The notes: generated from the sequence alone by a model not told the origin. A stretch of 64,000 nucleotides of DNA from an uncultured cyanobacterium (GCA_963803805.1 CAWDOD010000004.1:256001-320000); one strand, 5' to 3'; shown: positions 49,082-52,575, counted from the first letter of the stretch. Made by a program: numbers and translations.

Positions 49082-49726
49082 CTAGGGTTTTTTGTATTTT
49101 ATCCTTAACTTTGCCCCTGCTGATGAGTTTAAACGTCCTAGTTCAAACCGATAGTTACGATGGTCAAGCATAAACTTTCTGACTAGCTTAGACTTTGCTC
49201 CACTTAATCTTCCTGGCTTTAAATAATCTTTGTATCTTTGAAGATATTTTAACTTTCTGGCAATGAAAGTTTTTTTCACTCCGTAGTTCCAGTATTTTAC
49301 TACATCGTACTTGTGTCCCATGTGAATATTACGATCAAAAGGTAGCCAACGCCTTGGCCCATTAGAGCTAGTTTTAACGTATACCTGCGGACCTTTTGTG
49401 GGATGATGCCTTGCTTTTCCTTTTTTAAACCACCGATTCCAGACCAACCTTCCTTGTTTACTATGTTTGCCAGGAGTTCTACCCATAAATGTCAATCGAG
49501 CAGAAGGTTTTTTACTACGGGGACGACCACGAGTTGCACGGCTAACTTGTCTACCTCCTTTAAGCTTCCCTTTGAAGACATTCTTTAAAAGAGGTTTCAA
49601 AAAACTAAACCGTTCCAATTGTACTTTTTCAGATTGTATTTCTTCTAGTTCCTCCGGCAAAAATTGTAAGTTTTCTAGTTCTGCTTCTGAGAACAACTCG
49701 ATTTGTTGTACCATTTTGACTGACAT
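49082..49726 (-). CDS. Acidic-leader precursor of an HNH/EndoVII (GH-E-type) nuclease toxin
   Basis: 38-aa Glu-rich leader, then FMGRTPGK.SK.GR, HMGHKYDVVKYWN, GAKS..VRKFMLD..NYRFE...NSSAGA. Confidence 0.75.
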   Translation of the reverse strand: MSVKMVQQIELFSEAELENLQFLPEELEEIQSEKVQLERFSFLKPLLKNVFKGKLKGGRQVSRATRGRPRSKKPSARLTFMGRTPGKHSKQGRLVWNRWFKKGKARHHPTKGPQVYVKTSSNGPRRWLPFDRNIHMGHKYDVVKYWNYGVKKTFIARKLKYLQRYKDYLKPGRLSGAKSKLVRKFMLDHRNYRFELGRLNSSAGAKLRIKYKKP

Positions 49727-49777
49727 GATTTTCTCCTTTGCTGACGATATTTAAGAAATATAGTTGTTGCAATTTGT

Positions 49778-50155
49778 CTAAGCCTGTTCAAAAACGACCT
49801 TATCTACACTCAGGAGAGGAATTTTTATGATGTGGTGGGGCTGTGTAAAAGCCTCTGTCACCAGAGCATCAGCCTGGGGTTGGCAAGACTTAATTATTGC
49901 AACTAAATGCGAATTTTTAATCTCGACGTTGGTAACTTCAACGGAGTAGCCGCCAGTAGGTTTCTCCCCTGCAAAAACTGCAACTACTTGATACTGGGTA
50001 AAATCTACTTCCGGCACTGGAGGAGGGGGGATGTGATCGCAACTATGCTGTTGCCAAATATCTATCCATGCTGCGGTATTACTAATCACTATCCGGTTAG
50101 CTGTCGGGTAACCACTGTTAATCCCTTTGGCAATAGTGCTAAAGTCAACTCTCAT
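49778..50155 (-). CDS. PrcB C-terminal-domain family protein (subtilase accessory)
   Basis: PEVDFTQYQVVAVFAGEKPTGGYSVEV...VTEAFTQPHHIIKI; starts 5 bp after the S8 stop. Confidence 0.85.
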   Translation of the reverse strand: MRVDFSTIAKGINSGYPTANRIVISNTAAWIDIWQQHSCDHIPPPPVPEVDFTQYQVVAVFAGEKPTGGYSVEVTNVEIKNSHLVAIIKSCQPQADALVTEAFTQPHHIIKIPLLSVDKVVFEQA

Positions 50156-50160
50156 TTCAT

Positions 50161-51885
50161 TTACTTTCCTTGAGTTACGACTGAGGGAGGAATATTGGGG
50201 GCTTGGTAAGTTAGTTGATGAGATTGTTTCTTTTTCTCTCCATTAGGGGTACAAAAGCTCACATTCAATGTCAGATGATACTGACTGGAGTGGCTATTGG
50301 GCAAAACCTCAATCTCAAAATTACGGGTCGCATCTTTGCTAATACGCAAATCACCGTAATCTTTTTCCGTACTGGTAACTTTAATGTGGTCATGATTAGA
50401 AATCAAACTTGCTTTGACGGTTTGCATTACTTTTTCACCAGTATTCCTGACAGAAACATTCACCTGTTCAAGTAGCTTCCGCTCTTTTATGGCTGAGGTG
50501 AAGGTAACTGAGCTTTTTTCTCCCTGTTCTGTTGAAGATTTCCCTACCATCTCCAAAGCTTTGACAACATCAACTAATCCCTTACCAGCAATGTTGGGGT
50601 CTTGTTCTGAATCAAGGACTTGAGCTGATTCCCTAAGAATGTTTTTAACTTGCCAAGTTTTTAGTTGCGAATGGCGCTCCAACATTAGAGCCACAATCCC
50701 AGAAATGTGGGGAGCGGCCATGCTTGTACCAGAATTCCTAATATAACCTCCACCAGGCTTTGCGGAGATAATTTGATAACCTGGTGCTAAGATATCTGGC
50801 TTCGGTCGGTTATCGGTAGTAGGACCACGGCTGCTGAAAGGCATTACTTCTGTACCATCACCGTTAGATGCTCCCACAACAATCAGATCACCATTAGCAT
50901 CTGCTGGAGTTGTAATGGTTCCAGGATTAGGACCGCTATTTCCTGCACTCTTAACCAAAACTAAACCTAGTTGAACTGCTCTTTCAGCAATTTTGGTTAC
51001 AATACTCTTACCATCAAGCTTTGCAGCAATTCCCCAGCTACAGTTAACAATCTTCACCCCCTCTTTCATATCTCTCATGACATCCTCAAGGGCCTGAGCG
51101 CCTTTAGAACTACCTTCAAGAGCTTCAGTAGCACCACTGGGAAAGATTTTGTAGCTCCAAATGGTTACTTCCGGAGCCATTCCCCTATATTGGGAGCCAT
51201 TACCCCCAATGATACCGGCTACGTGAGTTCCGTGGGGATGGGGATTGCCCCAATCTTCATCCGTGTAATTTCGCTTGCGGATAACGCGACCCTTGAAGTC
51301 AGGATGTTCAGCATCAACTTCTCCATCTAAAACTGCAACAATTACTCCCCTACCAGTACCAACCAGTTCTTTGCTTCTGGCATCAACTACGCCCACTAAT
51401 GCAGCACTCTTGTCTAGTTCTAACTTTAAGGGTTTATCAACTTCTAGATATTCTACATCCTCTCGTTGGGCTAGGTTTTTAATTTGCAGAGGGGTAAGTT
51501 CAGCAACAACAGCATTACCTAATTTTAAGTTTTCCTCAATTTTCACTTGTTCTTGTTGCAAGTCTTCTAGAAATGACTCAGCACCTTGATCTGCTAAGCG
51601 TTCAAACTCTTCAAACTCAGAACATTCAAATTCTTCATTGCGTTCTTGGTAAGATTCCAGCAGTCCGCTAAATTCTTCATGAAAATCATCAAAGGACTTA
51701 GGGGGTTTGTAATGAATAACTACCCTCTGACGCTGTTGAGATTCAAGCCCCTCAACTTCAGCAGTAATTTGATGCTCTAAAAGGTCTTCGAGCTTTTCAT
51801 CAACTTCAGTTCCCCACTCTTGGCGAACTTGTCCTGAAGCGCTTTCTAGTGCCTCTGGTGTAATACATAAATCATTGTTAATCAT
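50161..51885 (-). CDS. S8 subtilase with an acidic prodomain and C-terminal Ig-like domain; no signal peptide
   Basis: VAVLDG (D), HGTHVAG (H), SAGNSG (oxyanion N) and GTSMAAPH (S). Confidence 0.93.
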   Translation of the reverse strand: MINNDLCITPEALESASGQVRQEWGTEVDEKLEDLLEHQITAEVEGLESQQRQRVVIHYKPPKSFDDFHEEFSGLLESYQERNEEFECSEFEEFERLADQGAESFLEDLQQEQVKIEENLKLGNAVVAELTPLQIKNLAQREDVEYLEVDKPLKLELDKSAALVGVVDARSKELVGTGRGVIVAVLDGEVDAEHPDFKGRVIRKRNYTDEDWGNPHPHGTHVAGIIGGNGSQYRGMAPEVTIWSYKIFPSGATEALEGSSKGAQALEDVMRDMKEGVKIVNCSWGIAAKLDGKSIVTKIAERAVQLGLVLVKSAGNSGPNPGTITTPADANGDLIVVGASNGDGTEVMPFSSRGPTTDNRPKPDILAPGYQIISAKPGGGYIRNSGTSMAAPHISGIVALMLERHSQLKTWQVKNILRESAQVLDSEQDPNIAGKGLVDVVKALEMVGKSSTEQGEKSSVTFTSAIKERKLLEQVNVSVRNTGEKVMQTVKASLISNHDHIKVTSTEKDYGDLRISKDATRNFEIEVLPNSHSSQYHLTLNVSFCTPNGEKKKQSHQLTYQAPNIPPSVVTQGK

Positions 51886-52047
51886 AGTTTGAGCAGAAAA
51901 ATGTGGATTTTGTGAGTTTCTGAGCCGAGTGCATCTCTTCTTGTAAGGACAGAGTTGATTTGAGAACTAAAATATTTTGCAGGGGCGAGTGGTTACTTGC
52001 TAAGTCAGGGAGATGCAAACGCCCCTAGATAATTGGTTAATCCTTAG

Positions 52048-52575
52048 TTAGAACCAACCTAATTTAGCTCCTAACCAACCAGCAGCACCAGCAGCCCAAT
52101 ACTGCCAAGCTTCAAGTTCTTCTGATTTCAATCCAGCTTCTTTGCTAATAGCAGGGAAAAGTCTAGCAACAATAGGGGGACAAAAAATAGTAGCTAAAAA
52201 TCGTAAATAGCCTGGTAAAGGTTTGGCCACTATGGGGGTGATCAATTTAGCCACACTGTTAGGGCCTTGACGACAGGCTGCTTCTAACTTACTCCGAGTT
52301 TTCGGATTGGTAGTGATTTTTTTGACTGCTTTTTTGACCAAGCAAGTGAATACTTTCGTCAATTGACGTGTCATGTAACTGCTGGAAGCACAACCTTCAG
52401 TGTCTTCTACCATGTAGTACTCTACATCTTCAGCTACATTCTCTAAATCTATGCTTTCTAAGTTTTCTACAAACAAAGACTCAAGCCCTTCTAAGTCCAT
52501 AGATTCCATTTGTAGAGTCTCCATATCTGCTTCGGAAAATTCGAGTTGTTCGGAAGAATTAGTAGTGTAGGTCAT
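52048..52575 (-). CDS. Acidic-leader precursor with a cationic amphipathic core and a C-terminal Trp/Gly peptide
   Basis: 60-aa leader with 14 Glu and 5 Asp; basic core with four Cys; EELE-AWQYWAAGAAGWLGAKLGWF tail. Confidence 0.7.
   Translation of the reverse strand: MTYTTNSSEQLEFSEADMETLQMESMDLEGLESLFVENLESIDLENVAEDVEYYMVEDTEGCASSSYMTRQLTKVFTCLVKKAVKKITTNPKTRSKLEAACRQGPNSVAKLITPIVAKPLPGYLRFLATIFCPPIVARLFPAISKEAGLKSEELEAWQYWAAGAAGWLGAKLGWF

Follow-up and report, generated by a model that had tools for sequence, protein, structure and literature searches.

S8 proteases remove the leaders of peptides that are made by the ribosome and modified after translation (RiPPs), CylA-type subtilases activate toxins, and the leader in such pathways keeps the product inactive inside the producer. 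The anionic pro-pieces of cationic host-defence peptides and the engineered activatable cell-penetrating peptides make use of a polyanion that blocks the membrane activity of a polycation until the linker is cleaved; in bacterial gasdermin-protease operons the adjoining protease is believed to set free a membrane-active protein from autoinhibition, and effector-associated adaptor domains occur in other conflict systems. We know of no bacterial system in which an anionic mask serves multiple cargoes and is accompanied by its own protease. For dentilisin of Treponema denticola (prcB-prcA-prtP) it was reported that the PrtP protein depends on PrcB and that the two interact, and that the co-encoded PrcA is cleaved in a PrtP-dependent manner (PMC8167434). 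The polymorphic toxin systems surveyed by Zhang et al. (2012, PMC3482391) include processing proteases; PrcB is not mentioned in that paper (0 occurrences). From cyanobacteria, Wang et al. (2011, PMC3140520) described double-glycine leaders of bacteriocins and, as 'group VI', bacteriocin clusters with an S8 protease, a C39-ABC transporter, HlyD, SurA and DUF37 precursors of 82-84 aa. Here we report on a four-gene cassette at 49082..52575 of a 64,000-nucleotide stretch of DNA from an uncultured cyanobacterium (GCA_963803805.1, CAWDOD010000004.1:256001-320000; hereafter the window), in which a subtilase and a PrcB-domain protein stand between two proteins with homologous acidic leaders, and which we read, with a probability of roughly 0.55, as a leader-guided, protease-matured polymorphic pro-effector cassette with charge masking.

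The cassette comprises, in order, gene A (52048..52575, 175 aa), a conserved A-type pro-protein in which an acidic leader is followed by a basic helical domain and a C-terminal tail rich in Trp and Gly; an S8 subtilase (50161..51885, 574 aa; Pfam Peptidase_S8, PF00082, 3e-50); a PrcB_C-domain protein (49778..50155, 125 aa; PF14343, 59.4 bits, E = 3.9e-16); and gene B (49082..49726, 214 aa), a variable-cargo pro-protein with a shortened acidic leader, a Leu-Glu/Arg junction and a very basic cargo. All four genes lie on the minus strand with intergenic gaps of 162, 5 and 51 nt, the start codon of the PrcB-like gene being placed 5 nt past the S8 stop. An earlier note on this stretch had named these four co-oriented genes, and an open reading frame (ORF) listing reproduced their coordinates exactly. 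Neither A nor B matched a family in Pfam, NCBIfam or PADLOC. Neither these three profile libraries nor the searched literature (the 'group VI' supplementary tables of PMC3140520, possibly relevant, were not covered) describe the leader, the family of A or the cassette; the earlier note had not recognised the architecture as described.

The central observation is a homologous acidic N-terminal module of about 57 aa common to A (residues 1-57, 52405..52575, minus strand, net charge -17) and B. A 57-position hidden Markov model (HMM), built from the leaders of A and B relatives with A and B themselves included, was run against all 40,086 six-frame ORFs of at least 40 aa in the window genome and matched only A (7e-27) and B (3e-17), the next match being at E = 0.8; leaders in other genomes provide independent support for the homology. 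The Glu-rich leaders with a common motif, pointed out earlier, are found as quoted at residues 10-22 of A and 8-21 of B. In B, the leader is homologous to that of A, but its acidic part comprises only about 38 residues (residues 1-38, 49613..49726, minus strand, from the translation and the alignments), ends in Leu-Glu directly before the first Arg, and lacks the distal half. In the single relative of B, with 42% identity, the leader is complete and can be aligned to those of A over about 57 residues, and by this alignment the window B is a protein that has lost the distal half of its leader. Across the family the module is polyanionic and spans about 57-66 residues, with a median net charge of -19 in A-type and -15 in the other leader proteins, and it has no match in Pfam or NCBIfam. 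In the AlphaFold2 model of A, residues 1-36 are disordered (predicted local distance difference test, pLDDT, <50), a helix occupies residues 44-58, and pLDDT is about 80 at residues 41-50. Neither S8 nor PrcB carries the module (hhalign probability 0.2-0.3%); the same leader at the N-terminus of S8, tried as a candidate, was ruled out at these values and by the lack of a leader-HMM match.

The same gene order, i.e. one to three A-type genes, S8, PrcB and one or two leader-cargo genes, was found in 16 further loci, which were reached in both directions, from the protease and from the leader, and PrcB directly follows S8 in all loci examined. Starting from the S8 subfamily, with one genome per species, seven loci were obtained (Stigonema, Brasilonema, Nostoc, Tolypothrix, a Pleurocapsa metagenome-assembled genome (MAG) and two further MAGs); a leader ORF comes directly after PrcB in 7/7, and two to three A-type copies precede S8 in 5/5 of those reaching far enough upstream. 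Starting from the leader only, for which eight close leaders served as the query because the 96-sequence leader alignment was too diverse, five metagenome loci were obtained, in 5/5 of which PrcB stands directly upstream of the leader gene, with S8 present in all three whose contig extends that far. In one metagenome locus S8 is split into two adjacent ORFs (L018:4673-6369, plus strand), where a frameshift, an internal stop or an assembly error is possible. All leader matches fell inside an S8-PrcB locus, 15/15 in five other whole genomes and 2/2 in the window genome. Thus, the co-occurrence of the leader with S8, PrcB and variable cargoes, which the earlier note had proposed as a check, was positive in every locus examined.

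A search for A and B across 401 cyanobacterial genomes gave two robust carriers, the window genome and G047, whose cassette consists of A, A, S8 and PrcB, followed by a leader protein whose cargo is F-box-like. Leader matches in G174 (24.5 bits) and G002 (19.4 bits) were judged spurious; one of these weak matches is interrupted by a stop in frame, and the other, at 16 bits, falls within an ORF of 399 aa. The hosts are filamentous cyanobacteria, and the cassette is often plasmid-borne: tblastn against plasmids located it in Tolypothrix sp. PCC 7712, Tolypothrix sp. PCC 7601, Microchaete diplosiphon NIES-3275 and Nostoc sp. UHCC 0926. On the PCC 7712 plasmid the order is AraC regulator, A, A, 'S8 family serine peptidase', 'protease complex subunit PrcB family protein' and 'ribonuclease domain-containing protein', and the leader is carried by both A proteins and the ribonuclease-domain protein, the first, second and last of the five cassette proteins; the Nostoc UHCC 0926 plasmid has A, A, S8, PrcB and a cargo. 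In the PCC 7601 plasmid record, S8 and the neighbouring genes are annotated in pieces, compared with the intact copy of PCC 7712. The G047 cassette (L008:5975-10081) stands beside a ParA/MinD-like ATPase and a MobA/VirD2-type relaxase, which fits the mobilisable plasmids that carry the Tolypothrix cassette. Downstream of the ribonuclease (RNase) cargo on the PCC 7712 plasmid (L023:12168-15427, plus strand), hypothetical proteins of 71 and 153 aa, an annotated lysozyme and a CVNH-domain protein are encoded on the same strand; these genes have no leader, and a tyrosine recombinase comes next.

What follows the leader is highly variable. A profile of A, B and the leader was compared with 1.84 billion representative proteins and matched 129 clusters (E<=0.001); in most of these the match is confined to profile positions of about 4-66, the remainders being unrelated. 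When clusters and locus ORFs are pooled, 130 distinct leader proteins result, 39 A-type and 91 other cargoes, whose database names read 'hypothetical protein' or refer to the cargo domain only. Among 84 representatives, Pfam gave a match in 13 and none in 71: Endonuclea_NS_2 (two), barnase-family Ribonuclease (three, one above the curated cut-off), F-box (three), CAP (three, one an A-domain-CAP fusion), GH-E (one, 23.8 bits versus a cut-off of 25), and one protein with weak holin-like/membrane matches. Additional cargoes in the loci matched Ribonuclease (34.9 bits), CAP (91 bits) and F-box (32 bits) in Pfam. In NCBIfam, 65 unknown cargoes had no match, and other cargoes appear by eye as Arg/Gly-rich, Pro/Trp-rich, Cys-rich or hydrophobic. 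The toxin-like nature proposed earlier for the cargo is borne out by several recognisable toxin-type enzymes, namely the barnase-family RNases, Endonuclea_NS_2 and the GH-E/HNH-like domain. As to the pairing of A and B in the earlier note, the common leader stands, but the two are not equivalent parts, A being a conserved core component and B one of many swappable cargoes.

For B itself, residues 54-214 carry a charge of +42. The match of its cargo to GH-E (HNH/EndoVII, PF14410) is weak (16 bits, E = 0.019, over 24 residues, with a cut-off of 25), and a GH...E...N...E signature as listed in PMC3482391 is readable in it by eye only. The structure model of the cargo (pLDDT 42.9, from a two-sequence alignment) is unusable, none of 64 candidates for a longer relative scored E<=0.01, and PDB sequences gave chance-level matches only.

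In spite of this diversity, charge follows a rule. Beyond the leader, the charge is positive in 39/39 A-type proteins and 84/86 others (123/125 in total), with a median isoelectric point of 10.6 and 11.1, respectively; the anionic leader and cationic cargo that had been noticed in two precursors are therefore a property of the whole family. The transition between the two parts is conserved as well. Past the leader model, non-A proteins continue with a conserved extension up to Leu-Glu, then Ala, Arg or Gly, and then an Arg- and Gly-rich run, the consensus being ...Glu-Gly-x-(Ile/Val)-Glu-Glu-Ala-Gly-Leu-Glu ahead of the Arg/Gly-rich sequence. A hydrophobic-Glu pair followed by a non-acidic residue, 3-20 residues past the leader model, is present in 61/88 non-A cargoes, whereas 200 shuffles gave 12.4 on average and 21 at most; Leu is the hydrophobic partner in 51/61, and Lys or Arg follows within four residues in 46/61. 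The window B retains its Leu-Glu/Arg junction despite the loss of half the leader, and a junction of the Leu-Glu/Arg-Phe type as in B is seen in several other cargoes. Many cargoes start with an Arg/Gly-rich or amphipathic basic stretch directly past the junction. At the junction of A-type proteins, the first basic pair, mostly Arg-Arg, stands ahead of a conserved Ser/Pro-rich stretch.

At the DNA level, the mean identity among ten downstream cargo genes amounts to 82-93% over nt 0-149 and to 25% beyond nt 210. Because identity collapses at the junction, we conclude that the cargoes are exchanged there by recombination. In this respect the cassette resembles the polymorphic toxins as described in PMC3482391, which likewise combine a constant N-terminal part with hypervariable C-terminal toxin domains (RNase, HNH/EndoVII-type and non-specific nucleases) and exchange the variable parts by recombination at a fixed junction. 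On the other hand, the proteins of the cassette are small and stand-alone (100-300 aa), their polyanionic leader belongs to none of the N-terminal families listed there, no secretion apparatus of a known pathway and no recognisable immunity gene is linked to them, and a dedicated free-standing S8 with PrcB and the conserved A-type proteins are always present. The architecture is best described as a cross of polymorphic toxins, with their constant N-terminus and recombining ends, and leader-peptide pathways, in which one protease serves many precursors. As in leader removal by S8 proteases of RiPP pathways and toxin activation by CylA-type subtilases, several precursors share a leader, differ in the core and have one protease; the cargoes here are whole folded proteins, however, and modification enzymes and a transporter are missing. 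Likewise, a polyanionic segment is joined to a polycationic one as in the host-defence pro-pieces and the activatable cell-penetrating peptides, which are eukaryotic or synthetic, the masking in the cassette being putative.

In the window S8, an acidic N-terminal region with a weak I9-like pro-domain precedes the catalytic domain (residues 178-436), and the C-terminal domain is beta-sandwich-like. Pfam scores are 171.6 bits for Peptidase_S8 and 17.5 bits, below the cut-off, for Inhibitor_I9; among nine family members, I9 is weakly matched in 6/9 and NPCBM_assoc in 6/9. Residues D187, H221, N316 and S388 are invariant in 9/9, and D187, H221 and S388 are presumably the catalytic triad and N316 the oxyanion residue, as in subtilisins in general. 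With the domain match and these residues intact, the protein is predicted to be an active subtilase. Its closest solved relatives are generic subtilisins, and other NCBIfam matches (mycosin, PatA/G, PrtP) are sub-threshold or generic. At the end of the pro-domain, near the position of the mature N-terminus of subtilisins, a conserved Leu-x-Leu-Glu-Leu-Asp is found. PrcB has no match among PDB sequences and no lipoprotein signal. In one MAG locus a second PrcB_C gene (L015:4769-5161, plus strand) follows the cargo gene, besides the copy adjoining S8.

The pairing of an S8 gene with a PrcB-domain gene (59.4 bits for PF14343 versus a cut-off of 24; in every locus) is shared with dentilisin, and the findings on the latter, where PrcB stabilises PrtP and PrtP cleaves a co-encoded protein (PMC8167434), support a logic of protease, partner and substrate. 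In contrast to dentilisin, whose parts are described in that work as spirochaete outer-membrane lipoproteins and whose substrates as given there have no acidic leader, the cassette proteins have neither a signal nor a lipobox, and the dentilisin-specific NCBIfam models are far from reached (PrtP, NF033595, 53.1 bits versus a cut-off of 300; denti_PrcB, NF033596, 60.9 versus 125). A neighbouring protease is also what the cassette has in common with gasdermin operons, the S8 matching the PADLOC 'subtilase' model (2e-54, 183.5 bits) generically, i.e. no better than it matches Pfam S8. Unlike in gasdermin systems, A and B have no gasdermin match in PADLOC or Pfam, the A model is all-helical, and the putative inhibitory piece is N-terminal and acidic. 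Judged by a defining feature of each, which is missing here, the cassette is not a member of the dentilisin, RiPP, double-glycine/ABC bacteriocin or gasdermin systems.

In the earlier note S8 was held to be probably Glu-specific, which the evidence, if anything, slightly disfavours. The Leu-Glu that precedes the basic region in most non-A cargoes speaks for it, but the residue aligned to position 156 of BPN' is Ser in the window enzyme and Glu or Asp in the other 8/9, and that aligned to position 166 is Thr in all nine; we take 156 and 166 to be S1-pocket positions. Specificity for Glu is not argued for here, because a basic S1 residue is lacking and Glu or Asp at 156 is unsuited to a Glu-binding pocket. 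The junction would be compatible with P1 = Glu, with P1 = Leu, or with P4 = Leu and P1 = Arg, the last fitting equally well.

The A-type proteins form the second constant part of the cassette. The window A has 12 relatives at E<=0.01, and in its AlphaFold2 model residues 66-146 are a helical bundle with pLDDT >90. A Foldseek search of this model against the PDB gave no match at E<=0.001, a wide search with VIA reached a Z of 6.1 at best, a value that says little where helical bundles are concerned, and the best score in the ESM Atlas, 0.81, is below a useful level. Their tails follow a conserved acidic linker and are of two kinds, either a short aromatic end or some 18-20 hydrophobic residues with Lys/Arg after them; a 15-residue Kyte-Doolittle window of at least 1.6 is present in 13/41 tails, mostly with runs of Lys/Arg after it, and loci typically hold one A-type protein of each kind. 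A metagenomic protein of 292 aa (P0026) joins the leader, the A-type helical domain and a CAP domain in one chain, a fusion which suggests that the A domain may itself carry cargo. Two further metagenomic relatives (P0092 and P0138) are Ala-rich and high-GC-looking, with acidic leaders of Glu/Ala/Thr repeats; from these, the family may reach beyond Nostocales-type hosts.

Taken together, leader-guided maturation is the simplest account of the cassette, because the tag is present on every accessory protein and only beside an active subtilase with PrcB, the junction is conserved and the cargo interchangeable. Every non-enzyme protein of the cassette would be made as a pro-protein with the same N-terminal module, PrcB would be the obligate partner of the subtilase, a stabiliser or regulator as in dentilisin, and the subtilase would recognise the module and cut at or near the conserved junction. 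Until then, the leader would mask the polycationic cargo, which is plausible in view of the charge rule and of RNase and nuclease cargoes without recognisable immunity genes. Two kinds of product would be released: one to three A-type helical proteins, usually one soluble and one with a hydrophobic C-terminal anchor and basic tail, which may constitute a membrane-acting exit or delivery component; and one or two basic effectors that are freely exchanged (RNase, DNases, CAP, F-box, peptides rich in Arg or Cys, and many domains of unknown function). Once released, the mature effectors would most likely target other organisms and not the producer itself. Such a target is favoured because CAP, F-box, Cys-rich and barnase-type families work outside the producer or in eukaryotic cells, because the cargo set diversifies like a weapon, and because the cassette travels on mobilisable plasmids.

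Several points weigh against this reading. An export route is not encoded in the cassette loci, and since S8 and PrcB look cytoplasmic, action outside the cell would need lysis or an exporter not yet recognised. CAP and F-box cargoes would be harmless to the producer even when unmasked, so that masking could not be the sole role of the leader. The part assigned to A is argued from its conservation and its tails, its fold having matched nothing informative; the S1 pocket, as far as it can be read from alignment, weakly disfavours cutting after Glu; and the window B cargo is without a secure fold or family.

The cytoplasmic appearance of the components rests on a hydropathy check, not a signal-peptide predictor, which found no N-terminal hydrophobic segment in A, S8, PrcB or B: the maximum over 12 aa on the Kyte-Doolittle scale within the first 46 residues is 0.61-1.37 for the four proteins versus 2.10 for a neighbouring HtrA-like protein. 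Neither a transporter nor a recognisable immunity gene is present within or adjoining the window operon. On both counts the earlier note had been right. In the loci scanned, no immunity-like family stands beside the cargoes. The 8.3-Mb genome that holds a barnase-type cargo (G401) has no Barstar-family match, controls having matched in 3/14, and small ORFs adjoining cargoes had no family match, a kind of search that unfamiliar immunity families would escape.

These same findings also speak for the serious rival, the programmed-death reading of the earlier note, in which the cassette serves suicide in the form of abortive infection or programmed cell death: a stress or infection signal would activate the cytoplasmic S8, which unmasks the A-type membrane disruptors and the nucleases and kills the producer for the benefit of the filament or population. 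We consider this unlikely, in spite of the apparent absence of exporter and immunity gene, the lethality to be expected of unmasked nuclease and RNase cargoes, the filamentous, multicellular hosts and the conflict-type genes that neighbour the cassette (caspase-domain NTPase/WD40 proteins in the window; a sigma-70 region-4 protein, a DUF1822 protein and a CHAT protease in three other loci). The S8 match to the PADLOC 'subtilase' model, which might be added to this list, loses weight in view of the comparable score against generic Pfam S8, and no sensor domain is fused to S8 in any of the nine family members by Pfam. CAP, F-box and Cys-rich cationic cargoes make little sense in a cyanobacterial cytoplasm and are a better fit to action on other organisms; furthermore, extreme diversification of the cargo together with recombination at the junction is a signature of weapons directed against evolving targets.

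A more far-reaching version of the preferred reading, which we hold to be rather improbable, dispenses with any secretion machine and sees in the cassette a natural counterpart of activatable cell-penetrating peptides. Here, each mature effector would begin with a translocation segment, Arg-rich or amphipathic, that the leader neutralises, and the subtilase might be triggered, e.g. by calcium influx, only when the cell is breached or ingested. Stripped of their leaders, the nucleases, F-box and CAP proteins and peptide toxins would cross membranes unaided, with A-type proteins helping to permeabilise them, and enter a grazer, fungus, host or competitor. If this were true, multicellular cyanobacteria would possess a modular protein weapon activated by wounding, and bacterial effectors a new route into the eukaryotic cytosol.

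Equally improbable in our view is that the leader is mainly a signal for secretion or packaging by a machine encoded elsewhere (an ABC exporter, vesicles or contractile injection), S8 and PrcB acting as trimming enzymes and masking being incidental. A single N-terminal tag on many cargoes is the usual organisation of secretion substrates, as laid out in the trafficking-mode table of PMC3482391, and many of the cargo families (CAP, barnase-type RNases, Cys-rich peptides) are typically extracellular. The first block of the leader also resembles the acidic helix of cyanobacterial double-glycine bacteriocin leaders. Yet Gly-Gly is not conserved at the end of the leader: as the commonest residue, Gly takes up -9 in just 34/61 and -8 in just 15/61, and it is absent from A-type leaders and from B. 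A linked transporter was found in 0/16 loci scanned; in particular, the ABC and HlyD genes of the double-glycine/C39-ABC bacteriocins, as described in PMC3140520, are lacking there, the only C39_2-like gene being a stand-alone neighbour (280 aa) in the window. Neither S8 nor PrcB has a signal peptide or leader of its own, and the near-universal positive charge of the cargo is left unexplained by a pure address tag.

That the leader is an uncleaved adaptor, docking A-type proteins and cargoes onto S8-PrcB to build a multi-effector particle, is very unlikely. It would account for the restriction of the module to the accessory proteins of the cassette, all of which have it, and a stable complex of PrcB with its protease is on record for dentilisin (PMC8167434). 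However, the module is largely predicted to be disordered, the two proteins onto which it should dock are without it, the protease retains its catalytic set, and the conserved junction motif with its sharp switch in composition looks like a processing site. A strict RiPP or bacteriocin pathway with a modified core and a LanP/PatA-type S8 is hardly tenable, since beyond the logic of leader and variable core it has in its favour a weak PatA/PatG family match of S8 (82.6 bits, far under the cut-off of 421), no tailoring enzyme occurs in any locus, the cores measure 60-240 residues and include folded enzyme domains, and the C39-ABC transporter, HlyD, SurA and DUF37 precursors of 'group VI' are all absent.

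Were leader-guided, masked maturation true, a single chassis of protease and leader would allow filamentous cyanobacteria to deploy and exchange dozens of unrelated toxic or host-manipulating proteins, with no secretion system and no matched immunity gene for each toxin, which would be a distinct solution to the problem of toxin self-protection. A new leader family and a new conserved family of helical proteins (A) are also defined, along with about 70 cargo families of unknown function that are likely a reservoir of new toxin folds, and PrcB-domain proteins gain a first functional context outside spirochaetes. The F-box and CAP cargoes would point to interactions at the protein level of free-living or lichen-associated cyanobacteria with eukaryotes. 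The cassette is directly testable, being present on plasmids of the culture-collection strains Tolypothrix PCC 7712 and PCC 7601, and the pair of leader and protease could serve as a general tool for the latent expression of toxic proteins.

With regard to regulation, the operon promoter presumably lies within the 418-bp divergent intergenic region upstream of A (52576..52993). Three minus-strand sigma-70-like matches are located here, the top one (10/12) at 52935..52908; the scanned region as a whole has 13 such matches versus 9.4 expected from shuffling, which makes this weak promoter evidence. An AraC-family regulator of 173-198 aa is encoded upstream of the A genes in four loci (L011:322-843, L013:2281-2814, L017:2055-2648 and L023:6650-7171) and is absent from the window locus; it is likely a dedicated regulator of the cassette.

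The aforementioned trio that recurs beside the cassette in three loci (L011:9239-13686, L012:5573-8505 and L014:3925-8108) comprises the sigma-70 region-4 protein, with 541 aa in L011 and L012 and truncated at the contig end in L014, the DUF1822 protein and the CHAT protease, which was seen in L011 and L014; it may be functionally linked to the cassette or a system of its own. In the window, the C39_2-like peptidase, two caspase-domain proteins and the HtrA-like protease are not conserved parts of the system. The first of these (52994-53836, plus strand; Peptidase_C39_2, E = 2.4e-7) is divergent from A across the 418-bp spacer and is probably not part of the cassette, because it has no counterpart in other loci. 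It is followed on the same strand by a caspase-domain protein of 1159 aa fused to a DUF7379 alpha/beta-hydrolase domain (54011-57490) and one of 1498 aa fused to a P-loop NTPase-like region and WD40 repeats (57782-62278). Both caspase-domain proteins match the PADLOC 'caspase' model and form a neighbourhood of conflict genes beside the cassette.

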